A DNA stretch of 14,676 nt from Candidatus Hydrothermarchaeota archaeon (GTDB lineage: Archaea; CAYFZR01), in assembly GCA_046760505.1 (NCBI GenBank), contig JBHIEG010000036.1, positions 1-14,676 of the forward strand, given 5' to 3'. A program made the translations under genes and the position numbers. Shown in pieces: positions 2,308 to 14,676 of this stretch. How positions within the stretch are numbered: the first letter of the stretch is position 1; the number at the start of each line of letters is the position of its first letter. Below the pieces are notes generated by a model. The model was not told the DNA's origin. It worked only from the letters and a program-made list of their open reading frames with translations, and did not search any database.

Positions 2308-3657
2308 ATGAAATCATTCACTCTAGAGCTTATCATGCCCACCCAGAAATATCGCAGATATCCGAGGGGGCTCAGGATGCCCGAGCTGACCCTTCCTGTT
2401 CTGGCTGCTCTTACTCCACCGGGCATCGAGGTCATAATCACAGAAGAAGAGATCGAGGAAGTGACCTTCAAGAGTGGCGTGGACCTGGTGGGATTGAGCT
2501 TTATGACCCCCATGGCTCCCAGGGCCTATGAGATTGCTGATGAATACCGCAGCCGGAGGGTGAAGGTCGTGATGGGGGGCATTCATGCTTCAGCCCTCCC
2601 TGAAGAGGCAGCCCGGCACGCTGATGCCGTCGTCATCGGAGAAGCGGAAAATATATGGAATACCCTGCTAGAAGACTTTGCATCGAACAGGCTCAGAAAG
2701 TATTACAGGTCAGCTGACTTTGCAGACCTGAGCCGGATGCCGCATCCGAGGCGGGAACTTCTTAAAAAGAGTATGACCTTCTCTCCCTATCCTATTCAGA
2801 CCGCTCGCGGCTGCCCGTTCGCATGTGATTTCTGCAGTGTAACAAAGTTTTTCGGAAAAACCTTCCGTTACAGGCCTGTGAAAGAGGTCGTTAGAGAGAT
2901 AGAAAGCACTGAGAAAAAAAATTGGGTCTTCGTCGATGACAACATCATAGGAAACCAAAAGTACGCAAAAAATCTGTTTCGCGAGCTTATTCCCTTGAAC
3001 ATACGCTGGGCAGGCCAGAGCTCAGTCCTCATCGGAAGAAACGATGAACTGCTGAGGCTTGCTGCAGAGAGCGGTTGTACCGGGCTCCTCATAGGGTTCG
3101 AATCCATCTCTTATCAAAACCTTCAGAGTGTCCACAAAAGTTTTAGTAAAGTGGAATACTACGAAGACTGCATCAAGAAACTGCACGACCACGGAATTCT
3201 CGTTCAGGCGTCTTTTATTTTTGGGCTCGACTACGACGACAAAGCTGTCTTTGAGGAGACAGTCGACTTTTTGAGAAAAAGCAAAGTGGCTGCTGTCAGC
3301 TTTTCAGTGCTCACTCCGTTTCCGGGCACACAACTCTTTGAAAAGCTGAGCAGAGAGGGAAGAATTCTTGACTACGACTGGTCAAAGTATGATTTTTCAT
3401 CCGTTGTCTACAGGCCAAAACGTATGACACCAGAAGAGCTCTGGGAAGGAATAAGGAAAGCCAGAAAAGAAATTTACAGCTACAAATCTATCCTCTCCCG
3501 GTTCACAGCGAACCGGTTTCACCCCCTTCTCTATTCAGTTGTGAATCTCAGCTACCATGCAAGGAACAGGAAAATGGCTAGATGCAAAGATAACATGAAC
3601 CGCATATTGAGCTCCAAGTGCAACATAATGGATGACAAAAAAAGAAGGCGAAGATGA
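2308..3657 (+). CDS. B12 (cobalamin)-binding domain radical SAM protein
   Basis: N-terminal B12-binding-type fold (DLVGLS, VVMGGIHAS, AVVIGEAE); radical SAM motif QTARGCPFACDFC (CxxxCxxC), FVDDN, IGFES, FIFGLDYD and LTPFPGT. Confidence 0.92.
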   Translation: MKSFTLELIMPTQKYRRYPRGLRMPELTLPVLAALTPPGIEVIITEEEIEEVTFKSGVDLVGLSFMTPMAPRAYEIADEYRSRRVKVVMGGIHASALPEEAARHADAVVIGEAENIWNTLLEDFASNRLRKYYRSADFADLSRMPHPRRELLKKSMTFSPYPIQTARGCPFACDFCSVTKFFGKTFRYRPVKEVVREIESTEKKNWVFVDDNIIGNQKYAKNLFRELIPLNIRWAGQSSVLIGRNDELLRLAAESGCTGLLIGFESISYQNLQSVHKSFSKVEYYEDCIKKLHDHGILVQASFIFGLDYDDKAVFEETVDFLRKSKVAAVSFSVLTPFPGTQLFEKLSREGRILDYDWSKYDFSSVVYRPKRMTPEELWEGIRKARKEIYSYKSILSRFTANRFHPLLYSVVNLSYHARNRKMARCKDNMNRILSSKCNIMDDKKRRRR

Positions 3658-4979
3658 AAATAACACTCATCTATCCTTCACTGAGTAAGTCCAGCCCATT
3701 AATGCGAAAATGGAAGCAGCCAAAAAGTCACCGCTACCCCGGCCTTGGACTGCTCTATGTGGCCGCGCTCTGCCCACAATCGACAGATATCCGGCTGGTG
3801 GATGATGAGTTCGAAAAGATTCCTTATGATGAGGAAACGGATCTGGTCGGAATCACCGTGCTCACAGCAAACTCAAACCGAGCCTACGAGATATCGAATC
3901 ACTACCGTCAAAAAGGAATCCCTGTGGTGCTGGGTGGAATGCATGTCACTTCCTGCCAGGAAGAAGCCTCGAATTACGCAGATTCAGTAGTTGTTGGCGA
4001 AGCTGAAGACACCTGGCCAAAGCTCCTCAAAGATTTCAATGCTGGCAAGCTGAGACCGATGTATACATCCTCGAATGATGCTGACCTGGCTAATAAACCC
4101 TTTCCAAGAAGGGATCTCGTCAATAAAACAGAATACACGACGATCAACACAGTGCAGGCAACAAGAGGATGTCCTTTTAACTGCGAATTTTGCTCTATAA
4201 CAGCCCTGTTAGGCCGGAGAACGAGATGCAGACCTGTGGAGGAAGTGGTAGAAGAAATCAAATCCCTTGAGGGCACTGAGTTTCTTCTCAACGACGACAA
4301 TCTCGCCCAGAAAATTGACTACTACAAAGAGCTTTTCCGCAGACTCATACCGCTGAAAAAAATGTGGGTGGGCGAGGCATCGTGGAACATTGTGAAAGAT
4401 GAAGAGACACTGGAGCTTCTTAGGGAGAGCGGATGCAGAGGACTGGCAATTGGGTTTGAATCGCTGGAGCCTCAGGACGGTGTGAGCAAAATCATGCCCT
4501 CAAAAAACATATTTCTTCTCTACAAGGAAGTGGTAAGGAAATTACATGAGCATAATCTTATAGTCTACGCAAATTTTCTTTTCGGGTTTGACAACGAAAA
4601 TGTAACAACGTTTGAAAAAACACTCGAATTCGCATTAGAGAGCAAAATTGATGCTGCCCAATTCGGTATTATAAAGCCGTTTCCAGGAACTCCCTTCTAC
4701 AAGCGACTCATAAAAGAAGGAAGGCTCACCGAGAAAAAGTGGTACAACTACACCGGGTGGAATGTCTGCTACAAGCTGAAAAACATGCCAGAGAGAACTT
4801 TCCTTCAAAAATTCTCCTGGATTACAAACGAATTCTTTACCTATCCGAGGATACTATCCCGGGTGATCCGGGCATCGAAGAGGACAGGCCTCTATGGACT
4901 GGGACTTCTCTTTGCCATCAATAGAGGACAAAGAAAATACATAAAGAATTTCTCCCGACAGGTGAAGAGTTCCCTCTAG
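3654..4979 (+). CDS. B12 (cobalamin)-binding domain radical SAM protein (paralog of the upstream gene)
   Basis: DLVGIT, VVLGGMHVT, VVVGEAE, QATRGCPFNCEFC, LNDDN, IGFES, FLFGFD and IKPFPGT; 4-bp ATGA overlap with the upstream paralog. Confidence 0.92.
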   Translation: MKITLIYPSLSKSSPLMRKWKQPKSHRYPGLGLLYVAALCPQSTDIRLVDDEFEKIPYDEETDLVGITVLTANSNRAYEISNHYRQKGIPVVLGGMHVTSCQEEASNYADSVVVGEAEDTWPKLLKDFNAGKLRPMYTSSNDADLANKPFPRRDLVNKTEYTTINTVQATRGCPFNCEFCSITALLGRRTRCRPVEEVVEEIKSLEGTEFLLNDDNLAQKIDYYKELFRRLIPLKKMWVGEASWNIVKDEETLELLRESGCRGLAIGFESLEPQDGVSKIMPSKNIFLLYKEVVRKLHEHNLIVYANFLFGFDNENVTTFEKTLEFALESKIDAAQFGIIKPFPGTPFYKRLIKEGRLTEKKWYNYTGWNVCYKLKNMPERTFLQKFSWITNEFFTYPRILSRVIRASKRTGLYGLGLLFAINRGQRKYIKNFSRQVKSSL

Positions 4980-5047
4980 CCCGAGATTAATTTCAAGAGC
5001 AAATATCGACAGAAGAATTGATGCGGCTATTTACTTACGTGGAATAT

Positions 5048-5452
5048 TTATTCCCTTAGAAAGGCATAGAACCACTCATGAAGAGAGGTTTTATCTGAGG
5101 CATCGATTCCGTATAGGAGAATGCCACTTTCTAAAGCTTCTTTCGCCACTCCCCAGTTCTCCTTGAGAGACGAATGAAATTCTTCAATCGTATAAGGAAA
5201 GACATCCACGGATAGGCCGAGTTTTTCTGGCAGGAACCGGGGTATGCGGTCGTCAAACCTCTCCTTTGAATCCTTCAAGAGAATGACAATATCTACATCG
5301 CTTGCAGGCGTAGCTTCCTTCTTAGCCAGAGACCCGAAAAGGATTATCCCCACTACATCTCTATTTCGAGATAAGCTCTCTGCCCAGGATTTCAATTTAA
5401 TGATGAGCTCTTCGTTATCTAACTTAAAGACCTTGACGGACACAGAACGCAA
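5048..5452 (-). CDS. Minimal nucleotidyltransferase (MNT; putative antitoxin)
   Basis: IILFGSLAKKEATPASDVDIVIL matches the GS-x10-DxD signature, and a third carboxylate lies in SVDVFPYT; 134 aa; overlaps the HEPN gene 3' end by 29 bp. The exact start codon is uncertain. Confidence 0.88.
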   Translation of the reverse strand: MRSVSVKVFKLDNEELIIKLKSWAESLSRNRDVVGIILFGSLAKKEATPASDVDIVILLKDSKERFDDRIPRFLPEKLGLSVDVFPYTIEEFHSSLKENWGVAKEALESGILLYGIDASDKTSLHEWFYAFLRE

Positions 5453-5810
5453 TCACCTCCTCGCAGACTCTTATCGCCTCATCGGCTTCCTCTTTTGTGT
5501 AGTATTTGTATGCTGGTCCTGAGGGATGGGCATTAGGGTATCGGGTAGGAATATAGTATTTATCCAGCTTTTTTGCCTTTTCGATGAGACTGGCTTCAGG
5601 TTTTGTGTCTTCAGACAAGTTCTCCAGTAATTCATATACGGAGTGCCCCCAGGCAATGCAGTTTTTCTTCATATACAATGCCTTTACTGCTTTCTCTGCT
5701 GACTGTTGGGCAGCAAAGCATGCCCAGGCATAATCCCCACTCCCAAGGCTGTTCCGGGCATGTCTTAAATCGGCTTTTGCCTGTTCAAACCAATCTTTGG
5801 ATCTGTTCAT
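5424..5810 (-). CDS. HEPN domain protein (putative toxin)
   Basis: W..QAKADL..A, YAWACFAAQQSAEKAVKA, WGHSV and LDKYYIPTRYPNAH (R-x4-H) are typical of standalone HEPN proteins; SD GGAAGAGGAG on the minus strand at 5826-5817. Confidence 0.92.
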   Translation of the reverse strand: MNRSKDWFEQAKADLRHARNSLGSGDYAWACFAAQQSAEKAVKALYMKKNCIAWGHSVYELLENLSEDTKPEASLIEKAKKLDKYYIPTRYPNAHPSGPAYKYYTKEEADEAIRVCEEVIAFCVRQGL

Positions 5811-5940
5811 AACCTGCTCCTCTTCCTTTTTGAAAATCCCTCATCTGCATTTGAAAACAGAAGAAAATCGCCTTGTCATCTCTTATCTATCTGATTTCAT
5901 CTCGCCTGTCAACCCGGGCCGCTTCTGGAAAAGTCCACCA

Positions 5941-6074
5941 TTTTTACTTTGGCTAGCGCATCTATCTGAGAATAGGGAAGACTCCTCAATTTTTCCCAGG
6001 GAAGACTCCTTTCTAGTTTGGCTGGCGCATCTATCTGAAAATAAGTAAGATAGCTTAATTTTTCCCTGGAAAAG
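5941..6074. repeat. Degenerate 69-bp tandem duplication in the HEPN/cas6 intergenic region
   Basis: 5941-6000 vs 6010-6069 match at 49 of 60 positions by manual ungapped alignment (shared core tttggct(a/g)gcgcatctatctga...aatttttccc). There is also an exact 13-mer agggaagactcct at 5974-5986 and 5998-6010. Confidence 0.85.
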
Positions 6075-6113
6075 AGCTCTTAAATAGGCCTTTTTCACCC
6101 CAAAAAGCACCAT

Positions 6114-6155
6114 CTAAGAAAAAATCTCATTCTTCTTAGTATGGGATTTTTCTAG
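6114..6155. repeat. Imperfect inverted repeat (possible operator or RNA hairpin)
   Basis: ctaagaaaaaatctcat (6114-6130) vs atgggatttttctag (6141-6155, reverse complement ctagaaaaatcccat), 10-nt spacer. Confidence 0.5.
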
Positions 6156-6209: not shown

Positions 6210-6238
6210 TTGCAAAAAAATTACAGTTATTATAATTT
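6210..6238 (+). promoter_or_regulatory. Candidate sigma70 promoter of the cas operon
   Basis: TTGCAA 6210-6215 followed by TATAAT 6231-6236 (15-bp spacer) or TAATTT 6233-6238 (17-bp spacer) in an AT-rich tract upstream of cas6. Confidence 0.5.
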
Positions 6239-6269
6239 TATCCAAGCAAAAGGAAAACATAAAAATCGG

Positions 6270-7232
6270 ATGCTAAGAAATTTTCGTTTCCAGAAGTTTC
6301 GCTTTTTCTTAAGACCATTAGAGGATATAGAGCTTTCTTCTTTTAAAGGCGCAACACTGAGGGGAGGGTTTGGTAGTGCTTTCAGAAGGATTGTTTGCCT
6401 CAAAAGAGACCTTCCTGGATGTCAAGCGTGTCCGCTGAAAAAAGTCTGTGTCTATTCGTTCATCTTTGAAACCTCCCCTTCTGAAAACTCAACCAAATTA
6501 AGAAAAATGAAAGATATCCCTCGTCCATTTATCATAGAACCGCCCCTGGATGGAAGAAATATTTTTTCGGGTGAAGATTATCTTAGTTTTAATCTCATTC
6601 TCATCGGTCGAGCCATTGATTATCTCCCTTATTTTATATTTACTTTTGAAGAACTCGGTAAGAGGGGATTAGGAAAAGGAAGAGGCAAGTATGAGTTCGA
6701 TCGAGTGGAGGTTTCGCGGCCTGAATCGCAGGACAAGGCTGAGATAATTTATTCTGGAAAGGATAAAATAATTTGTGACTCCTTCGAGCCAATAAAAATT
6801 GAAAAAATACTTACTCAATCGAGCTCAATCAACTCCAATATTATTAGTCTTAAATTTCTCACACCAACCAGAATAAAATTTAACAATAAACTGCTTGGTT
6901 CTCCTGAATTTCATCATCTCATAAGAGCGCTTCTCCATAGAATTTCAGCGCTTTCTTACTTCCATTGTGGACAAGAACTTGAAGTTGATTTTAAAAGGAT
7001 AATTGAGAAAGCTGGAGAGGTAGAAAAGGTATCTTCTGAATTAACATGGTCAGAGTTTGAAAGATACTCCACCAGACAAAAAACAAGGATGAAGATGGGG
7101 GGATTTATAGGAAAAGTAACCTATCGAGGAGATGTTTCTGAATTTTTACCCTTTCTACTCCTGGGCGAACAGATTCACATCGGCAAATCCTGCACCTTCG
7201 GTTTTGGAAAATACATTGTCAATGCCGACTAA
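6270..7232 (+). CDS. cas6: CRISPR pre-crRNA processing endoribonuclease Cas6
   Basis: FKGATLRGGFG, Cys cluster C..GCQACPLKKVCVY, PRPFIIEPP, LKFLTPTRIK, ERYSTRQ..M.MGGFIG and C-terminal G-loop HIGKSCTFGFGKY. ATG 6270 is preferred over the ORF-track TTG 6210, which falls inside the candidate promoter. Confidence 0.93.
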   Translation: MLRNFRFQKFRFFLRPLEDIELSSFKGATLRGGFGSAFRRIVCLKRDLPGCQACPLKKVCVYSFIFETSPSENSTKLRKMKDIPRPFIIEPPLDGRNIFSGEDYLSFNLILIGRAIDYLPYFIFTFEELGKRGLGKGRGKYEFDRVEVSRPESQDKAEIIYSGKDKIICDSFEPIKIEKILTQSSSINSNIISLKFLTPTRIKFNNKLLGSPEFHHLIRALLHRISALSYFHCGQELEVDFKRIIEKAGEVEKVSSELTWSEFERYSTRQKTRMKMGGFIGKVTYRGDVSEFLPFLLLGEQIHIGKSCTFGFGKYIVNAD

Positions 7233-7319: not shown

Positions 7320-9695
7320 GTGATGAATCACGAAAAAGAAGCCTACATATTGGGCGCCTTACTTCATGATATCGGCAAATTTGTCCAGAGAGCACAGAGA
7401 AATCCAAAAAGCAGAGACCATTGTAAATGGGGAGAAGAATGGTTTCAGGATAATCTTGCAGAAAAATTAACATCCGTCTTCACTGATGACGAGAAAGATA
7501 TAATAAGAAAATCGATTAATGTTCATCATGATTATTTTCCTTTCATCCAGTCAGCCGATGGCATTTCAGCATCTATGGATAGGATTTTGATTAAAAATGA
7601 AGAAGAGGGAGACCCCTTCACAGACCGACTGATTTCCATATTTTCGCGTATTTCAATTTCTAGGAAAGGGAAAGGAGAGCTTCACTATCATAATCTGGCT
7701 GAATTAGAAAAAGAAAATCTAGAAATGACATTTCCCATAAAAGAGAAAAAATGCAATTTCAATGAATATTCTGTTTTACTGGAAAAATTTAACAGCGAGA
7801 TAAAGAATTTAGATTTCAAAGAATTGACGCCAAAGCAAATTATCGAACAAATATATTTCATTCTATGGAAATACACTTGGTGCATTCCAAGTGCAGCGTA
7901 TAAGCATGAGCCAGACATTCCTCTTTTTGACCACTTAAAAATCTCGGCTGCAATTACAGCGTGCCTTTTTGATTATGATCAAAGATCGAAAAAGTCGGCA
8001 CCTGAAAAAAATAGAGAAGATGAAGAAGCTTTTGTTTATATAGCTGGAGATATTTCGGGAATTCAAAGCTTTATACTTGGAATTCTAACTCAACAGGGCA
8101 GAATTGCTAAGCGTCTCCGTGCTCGTTCCCTTCTTATTCAACTTTTATCAGAAATAGCCTCCCATCAGATATTGCATAAATTTGATCTACCTCTATGTAA
8201 CATAATTTCTTCAGCTGGAGGCAATTTTTATATTCTTGCTCCTAATATCCCCGAGGCAGAAAATCTGCTAAATGAACTACAGGAGTCCTTTGATAGATGG
8301 ATGTATGAAGAATACAGGGGTGAAATTTTCATTAGCCTTGCCTGGAGTAAAGCAAATAGCAATGATTTATCTTTCAACATAGATAACCTTTACGAAAAAA
8401 CTCACAAAAGATTACAGTTCAAGAAATACAGCCCCTTTAGGACAAATCTAATTAGTGATAATTCTTGGTCTACCAGAAAATTTTTGTTTAAAGAGGTAAT
8501 AGAGGGGGATGAGAAGGCGTGCGTGGGATGCCGCAAGCATCCTATTACTAATCAAGAAGAAAAGCTCTGCAAGTACTGCGACCTAGATAACAAAGTCGGT
8601 CAAAAATTAACAAGAGGTAAATATATTACCTATTTTTCTGATGATGCTCGCGCGTTTCCTTTGCTAAATTATTCTTTTGATATTTTGCCCAGCCTGAAAG
8701 AAGAAAAAAACGCCTACATGATCCAGGCACTAAACGACACAAAAAACCCGCAGATAGGATTCAAATTCATAGCAACTCATATTCCTACAGCAGAAGAAGT
8801 GGGGTGTAAAAAGGAGGAACATGAACATAAGCCAGGAACACCAGCACCAGCGTTTTTTGATTGTATTGCTGATGCATCTGAAGGGGATAAGTCATTAGCA
8901 TATGTTAAAGCTGATGTTGACAATATGGGAAAAATAATTAGGTATGGCTTCCACCCCTCCCTGCCAGAGGACAAATATGTCATTAAAGAAGTAAAACCAT
9001 CTGTCTCTCGCCTTTGCTCTTTGAGCAGAATGCTAGAAACATTTTTTGGCGGAGTAATACAGTTAGAGTTAGAAAAGGAGTTTCCTGAAATATACACTGT
9101 GTTTTCTGGAGGAGATGAGTTTTTTCTGCTGGGTCCATGGAATAAAATTATTGATTTTACAGAAAAAATAAGAAAAAAGTTCGATCAATTTACTGGGTTT
9201 AATCCAGACCTCACATTTTCAGCAGGGATTACGATGGCGAAACCTCATGAGCCTATATCTTTTTGTGCTGAATCAGTTAGCGAAGCATTGAATTGCTCAA
9301 AGGCAAGAAAAGATGAAACAGACATTGAATTGAAAAATGCTATTACTGTCTTTAATCAAACCTTGAGTTGGGATGAATTAAAGGATATTGTTTTGCCAGA
9401 AGTAAGGAAAATAAAGGAATGGGTGGATAAAGAACTTGTTTCTCGCCAATTTGCTTATTTACTTTGGCAATGCGCACTTAAGTATGAAATATATAAAAAA
9501 ACATGCAGAACAGATAGTCTGGAATTTGTTCCAATGCTTGCAGGAAGCATAAATCGCAATTTAGACCCAGTAAAGCAAGAAAAAATATTTAACTGGACAA
9601 AAAGTTTGTTGCCATCACAGAAGAAAGTATTTAGCGAGAAATTACAATTTTTAAGAACCATAATGGAGTATGTTCTGGCCTATACGAGGAGGTAA
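7320..9695 (+). CDS. cas10: Type III-A Cas10/Csm1 (HD nuclease + Palm domains)
   Basis: HD motifs LLHDIGK, DH, HHD and ADGISA; PLFDHLK; Palm1 GDISGIQSFI, KRLRARS and GGNFYIL; Zn finger CVGC...CKYC; Palm2 KADVDNMG and VFSGGDEFF; 791 aa. Confidence 0.96.
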   Translation: MMNHEKEAYILGALLHDIGKFVQRAQRNPKSRDHCKWGEEWFQDNLAEKLTSVFTDDEKDIIRKSINVHHDYFPFIQSADGISASMDRILIKNEEEGDPFTDRLISIFSRISISRKGKGELHYHNLAELEKENLEMTFPIKEKKCNFNEYSVLLEKFNSEIKNLDFKELTPKQIIEQIYFILWKYTWCIPSAAYKHEPDIPLFDHLKISAAITACLFDYDQRSKKSAPEKNREDEEAFVYIAGDISGIQSFILGILTQQGRIAKRLRARSLLIQLLSEIASHQILHKFDLPLCNIISSAGGNFYILAPNIPEAENLLNELQESFDRWMYEEYRGEIFISLAWSKANSNDLSFNIDNLYEKTHKRLQFKKYSPFRTNLISDNSWSTRKFLFKEVIEGDEKACVGCRKHPITNQEEKLCKYCDLDNKVGQKLTRGKYITYFSDDARAFPLLNYSFDILPSLKEEKNAYMIQALNDTKNPQIGFKFIATHIPTAEEVGCKKEEHEHKPGTPAPAFFDCIADASEGDKSLAYVKADVDNMGKIIRYGFHPSLPEDKYVIKEVKPSVSRLCSLSRMLETFFGGVIQLELEKEFPEIYTVFSGGDEFFLLGPWNKIIDFTEKIRKKFDQFTGFNPDLTFSAGITMAKPHEPISFCAESVSEALNCSKARKDETDIELKNAITVFNQTLSWDELKDIVLPEVRKIKEWVDKELVSRQFAYLLWQCALKYEIYKKTCRTDSLEFVPMLAGSINRNLDPVKQEKIFNWTKSLLPSQKKVFSEKLQFLRTIMEYVLAYTRR

Positions 9696-9697
9696 AA

Positions 9698-10171
9698 ATG
9701 CTTAAAAAATGTGAAAGATGTGGGAAAGAATTTGACGCTCGTGATCCCACACATAAAATTTGTCAAGGATGCTTTCGAGAGAGGAATAAAGGATATATTC
9801 CAGAAGAATTATTGATTCGCTCTTACTTTAATGATAGAGGCAATTTCATAGAAGATATCTTTATAGATATTCCTGAAAGACTTGCAAATATTTTCCATTA
9901 TGATGGTCTGAAGAATACACAGGCACGATATTTTTATAATAAAATTTTGAGGGCCAAAGAAATAGCGTTGCGTGAAGGATTTGATTCAGCAAGACCTATT
10001 CTTAATGAATGTGTGCCAGAGATTCAAGGGAAGTTAAATCGAAGAATAAGTGGATTCACAGAAAGTTTCGCTAGTTTTTTAAAACATCATTTATCATCTA
10101 TCAAAGACGAGAGAACTTTAGAGGCATTTTATAAACATATAAAAAGTGTCTTGGATTTTCTTCCAAGATAA
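9698..10171 (+). CDS. csm2: Type III-A small subunit Csm2 (Cas11) with N-terminal CxxC-x13-CxxC extension
   Basis: Lies between cas10 and csm3; Csm2-like GLKNTQARYFYNKI and C-terminal LEAFYKHIKSVL helices; SD GAGGAGG overlapping the cas10 end. Confidence 0.8.
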   Translation: MLKKCERCGKEFDARDPTHKICQGCFRERNKGYIPEELLIRSYFNDRGNFIEDIFIDIPERLANIFHYDGLKNTQARYFYNKILRAKEIALREGFDSARPILNECVPEIQGKLNRRISGFTESFASFLKHHLSSIKDERTLEAFYKHIKSVLDFLPR

Positions 10172-10185
10172 AAAAAGGAGGAAAG

Positions 10186-10875
10186 ATGAAGTTATTGAGC
10201 TATGCAAAATTAAGTGGAACTATTAAATTAAAGACAGGCTTACATATTGGGACAGGTGAAGAAGTTGGGAAAGGAGAACCATTGCCAGTTATGAGGTCAT
10301 TAAGAACCGGTCTTCCATATGTTCCGGGCTCATCTCTTAAGGGAAAAATGAGATGTCTTCTTGAGATTTCTTATGGAAAAATTGGAGAAAATAATGGTCC
10401 ATGCGATTGCGGTAGATGTCAAATATGTATTTTATTCGGAAGTGGAAGCACCAAAAAGATATTTGAGCCTACAAGACTTATCTTTCGTGATTCATATCTT
10501 AGCGAAAATTTTGAGAAAGAATTAGAAAAAATCGGATTAGAGGAAAAAACAGGTGTAAGAATCGATAGAAAAACAGGAACAGTTGCCAGAGGCGCTCTGT
10601 TTAATATACAAAGAGTTCCTGAAGGTTTTGAATTTGATTTCGAAATCTCAGCAAGAATATTTGAGAACGATGATAAAGAAGCTGTTAAAAAATGGCTAGC
10701 TATGGGCCTTTATTTTTTAGAACAGGATACATTTGGAGGAAGTGGCACAAGAGGAGCCGGGTACATCGAATTTAAAAATATAAAGTTTGATGACAAAGAA
10801 TTCGAGGAGGATTGGAGAGACAGATGTGCTGAAATAAAGGGGGAACTACTAGATCTAAAGATAAAAAAAGAATGA
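10186..10875 (+). CDS. csm3: Type III-A backbone RAMP Csm3 (Cas7)
   Basis: TGLHIG, LPYVPGSSLKGKMRCLLE, C.C..C.IC.LFG, RLIFRD, EEKTGVRIDR, QRVPEG and G-loop GGSGTRGAG; SD AAGGAGG. Confidence 0.95.
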   Translation: MKLLSYAKLSGTIKLKTGLHIGTGEEVGKGEPLPVMRSLRTGLPYVPGSSLKGKMRCLLEISYGKIGENNGPCDCGRCQICILFGSGSTKKIFEPTRLIFRDSYLSENFEKELEKIGLEEKTGVRIDRKTGTVARGALFNIQRVPEGFEFDFEISARIFENDDKEAVKKWLAMGLYFLEQDTFGGSGTRGAGYIEFKNIKFDDKEFEEDWRDRCAEIKGELLDLKIKKE

Positions 10876-11780
10876 AAAAATTTTATCGATTATTCCTTGT
10901 ATTCAAAACACCTATTCTAACTCCCTTACAGGCTGACACAATCTTCGGACATCTCTGCTGGGTAATAGCTCATAAAGAAGGAGAAAATGGATTAAAAAAA
11001 TTTCTTGATCCATTTAAAAGAAGTAATCCCCCATTCATCATTTCAGATGGATTTCCTCATGAGCTTCTTCCCAAGCCGTTATCTGCTGAATTTTTGTGCC
11101 CGGAAGAAAAAAGGAAAGAAGTAAAGAAAAGGGAATGGATAAATATCGAAGAGTTCAATAAGGTAAGAAAGGCAATGCTATTTGAATTTCCTGCAGACCT
11201 TGAAAGTAGGGATATTCCTCAAAATATTCTTTCGATACACAATACAATAGACCGTATAACAAATACAGTTACTTCAGAAGTTGGTGTCTACAGCTTTCAC
11301 GAAACTGCAATTTCAAAGGTGTGTATCTATTTAAAAATTATTGAGGATGTAAGGTGGCTCGAAAGGATAAGAGAACTTTTCGAAGAACTTTCTAAAATTG
11401 GCTTTGGCAGGAAGAAATCAATTGGAAAGGGCCATTTTTCAATTGAAGACATTGAAATATTTAATGGGTTTTCGGAAATAGAAAATGCTGACGGATTTGT
11501 CACCCTTTCTAATTTCTGCCCTGCGGAAAATGACCCAGTCGATGGGCTTTACAAAACATTTGTTAAATATGGAAAACTTGGTGAGGAATTTACTTTTTGT
11601 GGCAATCCTTTCAAGAGGCCTCTGCTTATGATTAAAACTGGCTCCGTTTTTAAAACCAAGCGAAAACCAGAGGAATTTTATGGACGAATGATAAACGAAC
11701 GCATTTCACCCCAAATAGATAAAGTGGTTCAATATGCCTATGCGTTTCCTGTGCCCCTTAGCTATCCAAAAGAAATTTAA
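10872..11780 (+). CDS. csm4: Type III-A RAMP Csm4 (Cas5)
   Basis: ADTIFGHLCW, IISDGFP, HNTIDR, G-loop GFGRKKSIGKGHF, GFVTLS, KTGSVF and QYAYAF; 4-bp overlap with csm3. Confidence 0.92.
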   Translation: MKKFYRLFLVFKTPILTPLQADTIFGHLCWVIAHKEGENGLKKFLDPFKRSNPPFIISDGFPHELLPKPLSAEFLCPEEKRKEVKKREWINIEEFNKVRKAMLFEFPADLESRDIPQNILSIHNTIDRITNTVTSEVGVYSFHETAISKVCIYLKIIEDVRWLERIRELFEELSKIGFGRKKSIGKGHFSIEDIEIFNGFSEIENADGFVTLSNFCPAENDPVDGLYKTFVKYGKLGEEFTFCGNPFKRPLLMIKTGSVFKTKRKPEEFYGRMINERISPQIDKVVQYAYAFPVPLSYPKEI

Positions 11781-11792
11781 TCCATAAAGATT

Positions 11793-12074
11793 ATGAAGTC
11801 TCAAAGAAATATTTTGATCTCCACTGTTGGGATAAGTCTTCTCTCTAATATCGAAAAACTTCCACAGGATAATCTCCTGAAAATAGAAAAAGTAAGAGGC
11901 AACTGGATCGGTCTTTCCAAGAGATTGCTAGAGGAATCGGCTGAGGATAAAGTGAATAAAATATGGCGAGAAAAGAAGTATATAAAGAAAATATATGATA
12001 ACCCAGACCTTTCTGAAAAAGAAAAATTAAAGATGGTTTTTATAGATTTAAGTGAGACCTATCTCAAGAAATAA
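11793..12074 (+). pseudogene. Short APE2256-family (CARF) CRISPR-associated gene, probably internally deleted
   Basis: N-terminus ILISTVGISLLSN matches the TVG(T/I)SLL.N start of APE2256-family CARF proteins, but the ORF is only 93 aa and has no TGG.K CARF motif. The frame is open from ATG to TAA. Confidence 0.6.
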
Positions 12075-12091
12075 AAAAAGGAGATGCATGG

Positions 12092-13330
12092 ATGCCGAAG
12101 ACGCTGATCATAAGCGTTGGAGGAGCTCCCTCTCCTGTGATCTATTCTATCAATCAACACACGCCTGATTACATTATATTTTTTGCTTCTCTTGAATCGA
12201 AAGAACAGATACCTTACATTCTAAAAAAGATTGCATACACTCCGAAGGGAACCGAGAATATCGTCACGGAATCAGCTGAAAATATCAATGTCTGTTTAAG
12301 TCGTCTTCGCAGGGAACTTCCTCAGAAGTTACATCTCTATAAATCTAAGCTTCAGGAAACTATCGTTGATTATACAGGCGGCACAAAATGCATGTCCGCT
12401 GCTCTTGTTCTCTCGACCGTCGATTTGAGCTCTTCTTTTTCTTATATTGGTGGATTAGAGCGAGATAAGGGAGGCATAGGAATCACAATAAATGGAAAGG
12501 AGAGAGGATTTTATACGAATAATCCCTGGGATGAGCTTGCCATAGAAGCAAAGAAGAGAATCTCCCTTCTCTTCAATAGAGCCCGTTATCAAGCCGCTAA
12601 AGATGTGGTTGATAAAACTCTGGAGAAAGTGGCAAATAGAGAGAAGCCTTTATTTGAAATATTGGGCATCCTTATCCAGGGCTACATTTACTGGGATGGA
12701 TTCAAATATAAAACGGCTTTGAACAAGCTTGGAAGGGGGCAGAGGGATCTTAAAATTTATTGTGCGAACCTTGAAGAGAATCATCCCTGTGTCTGTCTTC
12801 AGAGGGATGTCGAAAGAAATATTCATTTTCTTTATCAAATTAAAAGCAGTAATAATCAGATTCTGGATTTAATAAGCAATGCGAGAAGAAGGGCAGAACT
12901 TGAAAACAGGTATGACGACGCTTTGATACGCCTATACAGGACCCTTGAAAAGAGGGCCCAGATTGAGATCCGCAAATACAAAATCGACCCTTCTGATGTT
13001 GATGCTCATCTCCTGCCTCCTTCAATTAGGGATGAGATAAAGAAAAAATATTTTGACAGAAGAAAAAACAAAATTAAGGCTCCTATGTATGCCTCTTATC
13101 AGATACTTAAAGAGAAAGAAAGGGAGCTTGGAACTCAAGGAATCGGACATAAGTTTTTTGACCATTATCATTTCATTGATAAAATCATTGCCTTAAGGAA
13201 TCAGAGCATATTGATCCATGGAGAGAATCCGATTGACGAATCCAAATATAAAGATGTTTATAAAAGAATCTTACAGTTTTTTGAAATCGAGGAGGATGAT
13301 ATTCCCCTTTTCCCTGTGTTTGAATTGTAA
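12092..13330 (+). CDS. CARF-HEPN ancillary effector (TIGR02710/Csm6-like, putative cOA-activated RNase)
   Basis: CARF motifs LIISVGGAPSP and VDYTGGTKCMSAAL, NNPW, RYDDALIRLYRTLE, and HEPN motif LRNQSILIHG (R-x6-H); SD AAGGAG. Confidence 0.88.
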   Translation: MPKTLIISVGGAPSPVIYSINQHTPDYIIFFASLESKEQIPYILKKIAYTPKGTENIVTESAENINVCLSRLRRELPQKLHLYKSKLQETIVDYTGGTKCMSAALVLSTVDLSSSFSYIGGLERDKGGIGITINGKERGFYTNNPWDELAIEAKKRISLLFNRARYQAAKDVVDKTLEKVANREKPLFEILGILIQGYIYWDGFKYKTALNKLGRGQRDLKIYCANLEENHPCVCLQRDVERNIHFLYQIKSSNNQILDLISNARRRAELENRYDDALIRLYRTLEKRAQIEIRKYKIDPSDVDAHLLPPSIRDEIKKKYFDRRKNKIKAPMYASYQILKEKERELGTQGIGHKFFDHYHFIDKIIALRNQSILIHGENPIDESKYKDVYKRILQFFEIEEDDIPLFPVFEL

Positions 13331-13331
13331 C

Positions 13332-13352
13332 CAGAAGCCGGGCTTGCTTCTG
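13332..13352 (+). other. Short stem-loop between the effector gene and cas1
   Basis: CAGAAGC (13332-13338) pairs with GCTTCTG (13346-13352) around a 7-nt loop; no U-tract immediately follows. Confidence 0.35.
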
Positions 13353-13394
13353 TGCAAGTTCTTTGAAAATTAAGCCAGAACTGGAGGATAGAAA

Positions 13395-14387
13395 ATGGCA
13401 GTTCTCTATTTAATAGAACAGGGTTCTCTTCTGAGGAAAGAATCGAAGAGACTGGTTGTAGAAAAGGAAGGAAAAATTCTTCTTGAAGTTCCAGAATTTA
13501 AGATAGAAAGAGTGATCATAATTGGTAATGTTCAACTTACAACCCAGGCTATGAAATTCCTGCTTCAATCGGGTATTGAAACGGCCTTTATGACAACCCG
13601 GGGAAAATTGATAGGAAAACTCACTCCTGTTGAGACTAAAAATGTGGAGCTGAGAATGTTGCAGTATCAAAAATATCATGATGAAAAATTCAGATTATCA
13701 ATGGCAAAATGCATTGTAGAGGGAAAGATAAAAAACTCAAAGGTGCTACTCCAGAAGTATCAGAGGAATCATCCTGAGGTTAATTTCGGTGCATCCATTA
13801 GAGAATTGAATGAATTACTCTTAGGCCTGTCCCGCAAAGAGAAGGTCTCTTCTGTATTCGGTTTAGAAGGAAGGGCATCAGCAGCATATTTCTCATGCTT
13901 TGGCCGTATGTTCAGAAAAGAACTCCAATTTGAGACGAGAACCAAGCATCCCCCACTTGACCCGGTAAATGCTCTGCTGAGTCTTGGGTATACACTGATA
14001 ACAAACGAGATACTTTCTGTAGTCTCTTCTATAGGTTATGACCCTTATATAGGTTTTCTTCATGGAATAGAATACGGGAGACCTTCTCTAGCGCTTGATC
14101 TGGTTGAAGAATTTCGCGCTCCAATTATTGACCGGCTCACTCTGGAAATCATCAACAAAGGGATTATTACATCGGGAGATTTCGAAAAAAAGGAGAAAGG
14201 ATATTTTCTCAAAGATTCTTCAAGAGAGAGATTTTTCAAGCAGTATGAGAAGAGAATGCAGGAAAGTTTTTTCATTCCTGAAGAAAAAGCTGAAGGAAAT
14301 TACAGAAGAATATTTTTCTACCAGGCGCAGAAATTTGCCAAATCTCTGAGATCGGGTAGCTTATACAGACCTTTTGCAATAAGGTGA
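13395..14387 (+). CDS. cas1: CRISPR-associated endonuclease Cas1
   Basis: LYLIEQGS, GLEGRASAAYF, PPLDPVNALLSLGY, GYDPYIGFLHG and SLALDLVEEFRAPIIDR; SD GGAGG. Confidence 0.98.
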   Translation: MAVLYLIEQGSLLRKESKRLVVEKEGKILLEVPEFKIERVIIIGNVQLTTQAMKFLLQSGIETAFMTTRGKLIGKLTPVETKNVELRMLQYQKYHDEKFRLSMAKCIVEGKIKNSKVLLQKYQRNHPEVNFGASIRELNELLLGLSRKEKVSSVFGLEGRASAAYFSCFGRMFRKELQFETRTKHPPLDPVNALLSLGYTLITNEILSVVSSIGYDPYIGFLHGIEYGRPSLALDLVEEFRAPIIDRLTLEIINKGIITSGDFEKKEKGYFLKDSSRERFFKQYEKRMQESFFIPEEKAEGNYRRIFFYQAQKFAKSLRSGSLYRPFAIR

Positions 14388-14393
14388 AGGTCC

Positions 14394-14676
14394 ATGAAAG
14401 AAGCATATTTCTGGATTGTAAGTTATGATATTAAAGACAACAGAAGGAGAAACCATGTAAGCCGCGAGTTAAAAAATTATGGAACAAGAGTTCAATACAG
14501 CGTATTTGAGTGCTTGATGCCCGATGAAAAAGCTCGGGAATTGACTGAAAAATTGGAAAGCATTATTGAGGACAAAGAGGACAGTGTACGATTCTATAAA
14601 ATATGTGAGAGCTGCCAGAGGAAAATTTCTGTTTATGGACGTGGGAAAGTAACAGAAGATGAAGACGTTTATATAA
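14394..14676 (+). CDS. cas2: CRISPR-associated endonuclease Cas2 (3'-truncated by window)
   Basis: Not in the ORF track. Manual translation: MKEAYFWIVSYDIKDNRRRNHVSRELKNYGTRVQYSVFECLMPDEKARELTEKLESIIEDKEDSVRFYKICESCQRKISVYGRGKVTEDEDVYI..., with the YDI, RVQYSVFE and DSVRFY motifs. The final TAA of the window is out of frame. Confidence 0.96.
   Translation, partial: MKEAYFWIVSYDIKDNRRRNHVSRELKNYGTRVQYSVFECLMPDEKARELTEKLESIIEDKEDSVRFYKICESCQRKISVYGRGKVTEDEDVYI

Follow-up and report, generated by a model that had tools for sequence, protein, structure and literature searches.

Does a type III-A CRISPR complex still cut its target RNA when Csm3, its Cas7 backbone protein, lacks the catalytic aspartate? 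The question is raised by a csm3 gene on contig JBHIEG010000036.1 of a Candidatus Hydrothermarchaeota archaeon (GTDB lineage Archaea; CAYFZR01; NCBI GenBank assembly GCA_046760505.1), a stretch of 14,676 nucleotides (nt) that was analyzed at its full length and is referred to below as the window. According to PMC4770243, residue D33 of Streptococcus thermophilus Csm3 is essential for backbone cleavage, in agreement with an earlier note on this DNA, which had named D33 as required for RNA cutting. The presence of the aspartate in Cas7 is used as the field's read-out for RNA cutting by type III systems, as described in PMC12669027 and PMC11026444. From the missing aspartate and an apparently shortened loop, the earlier note had concluded that the backbone is naturally RNase-dead. 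Both observations stand; the dead backbone itself is not the best-supported reading, and a clade-wide, derived remodeling of the loop with an acid kept at position 31 emerges in its place. Based on the sequence comparisons presented here, we give roughly even chances to a remodeled RNase center that still cuts with Glu31 as its acid. The elements concerned are the following:

10186..10875, + strand: csm3, 229 amino acids (aa), the sole Cas7/RAMP-family gene of the genome (TIGR02582, PF03787)
10234..10299, + strand: remodeled catalytic loop, residues 17-38 (translation, phmmer, hhalign)
10276..10278, + strand: codon GAA of Glu31, candidate relocated catalytic acid (clade conservation)
10279..10281, + strand: codon CCA of Pro32, aligned with the canonical catalytic Asp (phmmer, hhalign)

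The csm3 product scores 149.2 bits against the NCBIfam model TIGR02582 (Csm3/Cas7, type III-A; cut-off 90), matches the Pfam family PF03787 (RAMPs) with an E-value of 9.9e-24 and, in phmmer searches against PDB sequences, retrieves the Csm3 proteins of Methanocaldococcus jannaschii (4qts_C; 4.7e-40) and S. thermophilus (6ifn_F; 1.4e-26). The AlphaFold2 (AF2) monomer model, computed with a 150-sequence alignment, has a mean predicted local distance difference test score (pLDDT) of 93.6 and a predicted template modeling score (pTM) of 0.89; loop residues 21-30 are modeled with low pLDDT (block mean 62). When this model was compared with solved structures using Foldseek, ranks 1-49 among the matches listed were occupied by Csm complexes or isolated Csm3 chains (probability 1.00; query TM-score, TMq, 0.61-0.73), with E-values of about 1e-17 to 1e-18 and TM-scores of 0.66-0.73 against solved Csm3. 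Across the genome, TIGR02582 and PF03787 each have one match, which is csm3 itself, and there is no second match to either profile; hence, the genome offers no paralogue able to provide an Asp-bearing Cas7, and we rejected the possibility that such a paralogue supplies cleavage from elsewhere, bearing in mind that the window is an entire contig of a 142-contig genome, so that genome-wide absences are not absolute.

Translation of 10186-10875 reproduces loop residues 17-38 exactly as the earlier note had given them, places the first Asp of the protein at residue 74, as stated there, and confirms that Pro32 is encoded by CCA at 10279-10281. In the phmmer alignments with solved Csm3 proteins, Pro32 falls under the Asp of 'G-T-D-N-P-V' in M. 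jannaschii (4qts_C) and of 'I-D-S-P-V' in S. thermophilus (6ifn_F), with Glu31 at -1; in the entry 6ifk_G, the catalytic Asp column reads Asn. The same register was recovered with hhalign, where 45 members of the clade described below were aligned with 60 canonical Csm3 proteins (probability 100%) and Pro32 came to lie on the invariant Asp, with Glu31 again at -1. MAFFT offers an alternative, with Glu31 two residues ahead of the Asp column, and the register is thus uncertain by one residue. The canonical loop, I-G-G-x-D-(N/S)-P, is replaced here by a shorter, proline-rich (R/K)-G-E-P-L-P, and the distance from the HIG motif to the hydrophobic residue after Pro is 12 residues, compared to 14 in canonical proteins, which bears out the shortening.

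The remodeled loop characterizes a large lineage. A word-indexed protein search (E <= 1e-10) yielded 652 proteins, the best 120 of which were examined. Of those 120, the best 105 (53-81% identity with the query) have one short loop in common, G-T-G-E-x-x-x-(R/K)-G-E-P-L-P-V, and the other 15 (44-50% identical) have the canonical I-G-x-x-D-N-P-I-I-R or a near variant. Clustering at 90% identity gives no fewer than 105 protein clusters for the lineage. For the column counts, P0100 and P0105 (shorter than 195 aa, both with G-E-P) were left out, leaving 103 clade sequences with 55-81% identity; since P0103 is N-terminally truncated, position 31 is readable in 102 of them. Position 31 is Glu in 94, Asp in 4, Ala in 3 and Gln in 1 of these 102 sequences, that is, acidic in 98; position 30 is Gly in 100/102, and position 32 is Pro in 82, Ala in 12 and Ser in 8. 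The canonical Asp is absent from every clade sequence that retains the loop. When the 229 sites of the protein are ranked by entropy, position 31 comes 83rd and loop positions 26-29 rank 146-181, among the protein's most variable.

When 1.84 billion representatives clustered at 50% identity were searched exhaustively with HMMER, 2541 relatives (E <= 0.001) emerged. Of these, the best 150 include only three with the clade loop, P0058, P0105 and the fragment P0151, a rarity indicating that the lineage is a tight one inside a very diverse family. In a FastTree phylogeny of 260 sequences, the 103 clade members are monophyletic (support 0.997) and nested among Asp-bearing Csm3 proteins, with P0126 (D-N-P) as sister, followed by the P0106-P0120 group. 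Monophyly within Asp-bearing Csm3 points to a single derived event; judged from this tree, the short loop arose once, is derived and extends across the clade.

The catalytic column in the 157 non-clade Csm3 sequences used for comparison contains Asp in 145, Glu in 6 and a non-acidic residue in 6, each minority amounting to ~4%. Hence, Glu is tolerated in the active site elsewhere in the family. The Glu-bearing sequences are P0107, P0122, P0123, P0152, P0179 and P0262, and those without an acid in this column are P0119, P0124, P0224, P0255, P0259 and P0263. Some outgroups have Glu at the Gly+1 position, and P0119, in which Glu at that position is paired with Asn in the Asp column, possibly represents an intermediate state. 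In the MAFFT column of position 31, only 9% of the 157 other Csm3 proteins carry an acid.

The changes are not confined to the loop. Comparison of acidic columns between the 103 clade sequences and the 157 others brought out three further positions:

10552..10554, + strand: Gly123, which replaces a near-universal thumb-strand Glu (column comparison)
10609..10611, + strand: Gln142, in the column of the 'E-R-V-P' Glu (column comparison)
10621..10623, + strand: Glu146, a clade-specific conserved acid (column comparison)

The first column is Gly in 103/103 clade members and Glu in 150/157 others (96%); the second is Glu in 51/103 clade members and acidic in 156/157 others; the third, four residues past the relaxed 'E-R-V-P' acid, is Glu or Asp in 100/103 clade members (97%) and acidic in 16% of the others. 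Glu94, Glu114, Glu149 and Glu195 are further conserved acids acquired by the clade, which has Ser38 in place of D/H/N after the loop and possesses a clade-specific Trp170 and C-terminal Trp210-Arg211. The acidic surface has been reworked beyond one residue, a change open to two readings: a metal site that is eroding, or one that has been rebuilt.

How might such a site work? In our model, Csm3 is the sole Cas7 backbone of a compact III-A-like effector that lacks Csm5, is built from Cas10, Csm2 with its zinc ribbon, Csm3 and Csm4, and signals to a CARF-HEPN Csm6. The canonical loop was exchanged for the shorter, proline-stiffened one in a single ancestor of what is now a widespread lineage. We propose that the complex still cleaves bound target RNA at 6-nt intervals: Glu31, which lies one or two residues ahead of the former Asp, would use its carboxylate to hold Mg2+ or serve as the acid, and Arg77 of Csm2 would activate the 2'-OH; an altered cleavage rate may lengthen or retune the cyclic oligoadenylate (cOA) signal. 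The RNase center of the Lactococcus lactis Csm complex, as described in PMC8964682, is formed by Csm3 Asp30, for which a role as general acid or as metal ligand is proposed, and by Csm2 Arg48, proposed to act as general base; Csm3 Ile26, Gly27 and Ala28, 2-4 residues before Asp30, pack around Arg48. Since Glu31 lies 1-2 residues upstream of the Asp by alignment, it would fall in the stretch around the Csm2 arginine. Aspartates coordinate Mg2+ in the III-Dv complex according to PMC11026444, a role as Mg2+ ligand that we infer Glu could fill as well. Taken together, the clade-wide derived loop, the acid at position 31 in 98/102 sequences and the apparent retention of the Csm2 Arg make substitution by Glu31 a better hypothesis than a dead backbone; both a Glu31 within reach of the scissile phosphate and cleavage itself are inferred.

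The proposed partners are encoded around csm3 in one operon, the window's other CRISPR-associated features being:

6210..7232, + strand: cas6, 340 aa (PF10040, 1.6e-22; TIGR01877, 42 bits, under the cut-off)
7320..9695, + strand: cas10/csm1 (TIGR02578, 582 bits; HD motif, 7365-7370; cyclase motif, GGDE, 9108-9119)
9698..10171, + strand: small subunit, csm2/cas11-like, carrying a zinc ribbon (CxxC...CxxC) at its N-terminus (PF03750, E 0.0022, below the cut-off)
10872..11780, + strand: csm4 (cas5; TIGR01903, 136.4 bits, cut-off 55)
11793..12074, + strand: 93-aa open reading frame (ORF) between csm4 and csm6 (no Pfam/NCBIfam family)
12092..13330, + strand: csm6, CARF-6H-HEPN (TIGR02710, 158.3 bits; PF09670, PF22205, PF23400), with R-x6-H at 13196-13219
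13395..14387, + strand: cas1 (PF01867, 8e-97)
14394..14675, + strand: cas2, with an open 3' end that runs off the contig (PF09827, 4e-26)

These genes were compared with those of related loci, so that the clade is represented by eight loci, the window and seven relatives (L003-L008 and L036), six of which were found with the clade alignment in genome contigs and L036 in metagenome contigs. The records of the relatives are labeled archaeon, WOR-3, Deltaproteobacteria, Elusimicrobia and Clostridia, with two unclassified. The order cas10-csm2-csm3-csm4 is contiguous in 8/8 loci, and in 7/8 csm4 is followed by a CARF effector, preceded in L007 by a short stretch resembling the 93-aa ORF; in L006, an AAA_14/DUF4143 gene directly follows csm4 instead. 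The HD motif of Cas10 is kept in 8/8 loci and the cyclase motif reads GGDD in 7/8, namely in all seven related loci checked, unlike the GGDE of the window. Downstream of cas2, L003, L004 and L007 carry CRISPR arrays of 6, 13 and 17 repeats, respectively, with repeats ending in ATTGCGAC. The related loci thus look like working, adapting and signaling systems. A scan of the window's genome found no CRISPR array of three or more repeats. The window contig stops inside cas2, where relatives carry their arrays, and a two-repeat mini-array lies on contig C15 at ~46399-46510 (37-nt repeat, 74-nt spacing), its reverse complement ending in ATTGAAAG.

The small subunit reaches 19.1 bits against PF03750 (cut-off 24.8), and its operon position and size fit Csm2. 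A profile of eight small-subunit orthologues gives weak matches to solved Csm2 proteins (E 0.012-0.35; S. thermophilus 0.012, L. lactis 0.11). In S. thermophilus and L. lactis, the residue paired with Arg77 (9926-9928) is the Csm2 helix arginine; at this position, 7/8 orthologues have Arg. The four Cys of the N-terminal zinc ribbon (9698-9790) are invariant in 8/8 orthologues, including that of L013, a sister locus with an Asp-type Csm3. We know of no such zinc ribbon in solved Csm2 proteins.

No Csm5 gene follows csm4 in any of the eight clade loci. In the 142-contig assembly of the window's genome, the best match to the Csm5 model TIGR01899 scores 13.8 bits and lies inside csm3, and in five related genomes none exceeds the cut-off, weak matches again falling on the csm3 genes. 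L015, a locus further removed from the clade, does yield a Csm5 match with this model (62.6 bits). Csm5 is likewise missing after csm4 in L013, the sister locus, where Card1 and Csm6 come directly next; the loss of Csm5 thus seems to predate the loop change, an ordering that rests on this one locus.

How does this system compare with known ones? Relative to canonical Csm3 proteins (6ifn; 6xn3 from L. lactis; 4qts), the protein shares the TIGR02582 family, the fold, the operon place between csm2 and csm4, the P-x-x-P-G-S-S-x-K-G-K-x-R and G-rich motifs, and a Cys4 insertion as in M. jannaschii Csm3. It differs in lacking the catalytic-loop Asp (Pro32), in a loop shorter by 2 residues with Glu at -1 or -2, in Gly for the thumb-strand Glu and a relaxed 'E-R-V-P' Glu, and in the added Glu146, Ser38, Trp170 and C-terminal W-R extension. 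The type III-A effector module is defined in PMC11417356 as Csm1-Csm5 plus CRISPR RNA (crRNA). Agreement with this type extends to Cas10, which has the HD and cyclase motifs, to Csm3, Csm4, Cas6, Csm6 and Cas1-Cas2, to a candidate small subunit and, in relatives, to the adjacent arrays, whereas no Csm5 was found in the genomes and loci searched and the zinc-ribbon Csm2 is below the Pfam threshold. Given that the Cas10, Csm3, Csm4 and Csm6 models indicate III-A, while Csm5 is not among the genes found and Csm2 is atypical, we call the system a III-A-like variant.

Loss of the canonical aspartate has been described in other type III systems. In Cas7.2 of Sb-gRAMP, as presented in bioRxiv 10.1101/2022.08.22.504715, loop residue S457 is dispensable and the thumb residue D547 cuts, with Glu at the loop position in homologues, which sets a precedent for a catalytic acid that has moved within a type III Cas7 domain; for D698 of Sb-gRAMP, a distance of 4.3 A from the scissile phosphate is reported. 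The clade resembles Cas7.2 of Sb-gRAMP/Cas7-11 (III-E) in missing the loop Asp at the canonical position; however, gRAMP, in which all is fused into one polypeptide, has no Cas10, and the candidate acid considered here is still in the loop. Subtypes III-G and III-H, as characterized in PMC12669027, have Cas7 proteins without conserved catalytic aspartates and are devoid of adaptation modules; the signature protein Csx26 replaces Cas11 in III-G, and a diverged Cas11 replaces the Cas10 C-terminal domain in III-H. The clade shares with them the absence of the canonical Cas7 Asp and the kept HD domain of Cas10. In contrast, the window's locus has cas1-cas2, a CARF-HEPN effector and a full-length III-A Cas10 with a cyclase motif (GGDE here, GGDD in relatives), and is therefore neither III-G nor III-H.

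Could the unusual loop simply be an artefact, caused by faulty sequencing or assembly or by decay of the gene into a pseudogene in one genome? We attach next to no probability to this, having found nothing in its favor. The earlier note had argued that a single sequencing error is unlikely, and the analysis goes further: the same loop is present at the DNA level in 7/7 independent loci from other organisms, with synonymous differences in neighboring codons, which excludes such an error. The frame is intact at 229 aa, the operon is intact, and 104 further clusters among the matches listed carry the loop; on these grounds, both sequencing error and pseudogene were rejected. More substantial is the explanation that the whole clade has a naturally RNase-dead, or very slow, backbone, in which Csm3 only holds crRNA and target. 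Target binding would then switch Cas10 on, the signal would be ended by target dissociation, ring nucleases or a self-limiting Csm6, and Glu31 and the proline-rich loop would have been kept for structure or RNA contact. The D32A mutant of Staphylococcus epidermidis Csm3 reportedly retains immunity. Several observations favor this explanation, weigh against catalysis by Glu31, or do both. The canonical Asp is missing wherever the loop is retained, and two acids that are 96-99% conserved elsewhere are lost (Gly123) or relaxed (142), resembling a wider erosion of acidic sites. Conservation of Glu31 is good and not outstanding: the mean column identity of the clade is 64%, and about one-third of the sites match or exceed Glu31. 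Non-acidic replacements at position 31 (Ala or Gln, three lineages) are about as frequent as replacements by Asp (~3 lineages), and acid-less members persist, as a sub-lineage formed by P0049 and P0091 (support 0.998) and as the singletons P0085 and P0075. None of the aligners (phmmer, MAFFT, hhalign) puts Glu31 into the Asp column, and the AF2 loop is of low confidence. Csm2 aligns only weakly with solved structures (E 0.012-0.11), and the aligned L. lactis Arg counts as residue 47 in place of the Arg48 given in PMC8964682. Acid loss does occur in nature, as in the 6/157 other Csm3 proteins lacking one; in III-G and III-H, loss of the Cas7 aspartate is taken in PMC12669027 to mean no RNA cleavage; and both L005 and L013, the sister locus, carry genes of the NE0113 family, a CRISPR-associated ring nuclease by its NCBIfam name.

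Other evidence speaks against a dead backbone. Position 31 is acidic in 96% of the clade and belongs to a rigid G-E-P-L-P inside an otherwise variable loop, new clade acids such as Glu146 favor rebuilding over decay, the Csm2 Arg seems to be kept and, unlike in III-G and III-H, cas1-cas2 are present in the locus, together with a CARF effector and a cyclase motif. We therefore regard the RNase-dead or slow backbone as a serious competitor, though the less likely of the two. Cleavage could also have been kept with the acid moved out of the loop altogether, for instance to Glu146 at the thumb base or to Glu94, Glu114 or Glu149, leaving Glu31 in a supporting role. Glu146 is acidic in 97% of the clade as opposed to 16% elsewhere, Glu94, Glu114, Glu149 and Glu195 are likewise clade-specific, and thumb residue D547 of Sb-gRAMP, as reported in bioRxiv 10.1101/2022.08.22.504715, provides a precedent. 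However, the AF2 secondary structure puts these residues at the thumb base or in the palm, and Glu31 is the sole new acid inside the known catalytic loop; we deem a move of this kind improbable. Cleavage by a remodeled center with Glu31 as its acid thus continues to be the reading that we favor, at the even chances given above.

Several features of these loci stand apart from the catalytic question. The 93-aa ORF has no Pfam or NCBIfam match; its N-terminus resembles, by eye, the start of a CARF domain, and a weak tblastn match at the same place was obtained in L007 only. L005 contains NE0113-family, DUF2130 and TOTE-type AEP-TPR accessory genes (3693-6144 and 12230-13942), L006 combines its AAA_14/DUF4143 gene with a 429-aa gene without a family (10673-13250), and L013 has its NE0113-family gene and a Card1-like nuclease at 4725-5939 and 11270-12382. 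Just upstream of the window's cas operon, on the opposite strand, a HEPN gene (5048-5452, - strand; PF05168, 3.9e-36) overlaps a nucleotidyltransferase gene (5424-5810, - strand; PF01909, 4.3e-14), an architecture that resembles a HEPN-MNT toxin-antitoxin pair. The gap separating the HEPN gene from cas6 contains two tandem 63-nt units (5941-6003 and 6010-6072; 81% identical, 69 nt apart), which may be regulatory. Further upstream, a paralogous pair of B12-binding radical SAM genes (2308-3657 and 3654-4979, + strand) follows a gene for an NAD-dependent epimerase (1226-2227), and a histidine kinase fragment with an OmpR-type response regulator occupies 2-969; like the radical SAM and epimerase genes, these are unrelated to Csm3.

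Is such a lineage new? In text searches of the literature, neither an Asp-less nor a Glu-type III-A Csm3 was found described, and the supplementary alignments of PMC8964682, PMC11026444 and PMC12669027 might hold such variants. The text searches likewise yielded no account of a natural III-A system without Csm5, the matches on csm5 absence being two S. epidermidis studies. As a compact Csm scaffold, an effector reduced to four proteins and devoid of Csm5 may attract practical interest.

Collectively, the results present a lineage, labeled across phyla, that fails the aspartate test, yet keeps a neighboring Glu, the cyclase motif and a CARF nuclease, and arrays in relatives. If Glu31 works, the rule that no Asp means no slicing would be too strict, and the acid of Csm3 would be movable, as in gRAMP. 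The bolder suggestion, which we hold to be rather unlikely, is that a widespread Csm5-less lineage gave up target-RNA cutting altogether, turning its single Cas7 into a pure RNA-sensing scaffold of a 'non-slicing', signaling III-A system. In that event, the Cas10-to-Csm6 signal would be timed by target release and ring nucleases, in contrast to target cleavage in every studied Csm complex. If Glu31 does not work, there would be natural III-A systems with a second-messenger signal that is not self-limited by target cleavage, which would bear on how type III immunity is switched off.

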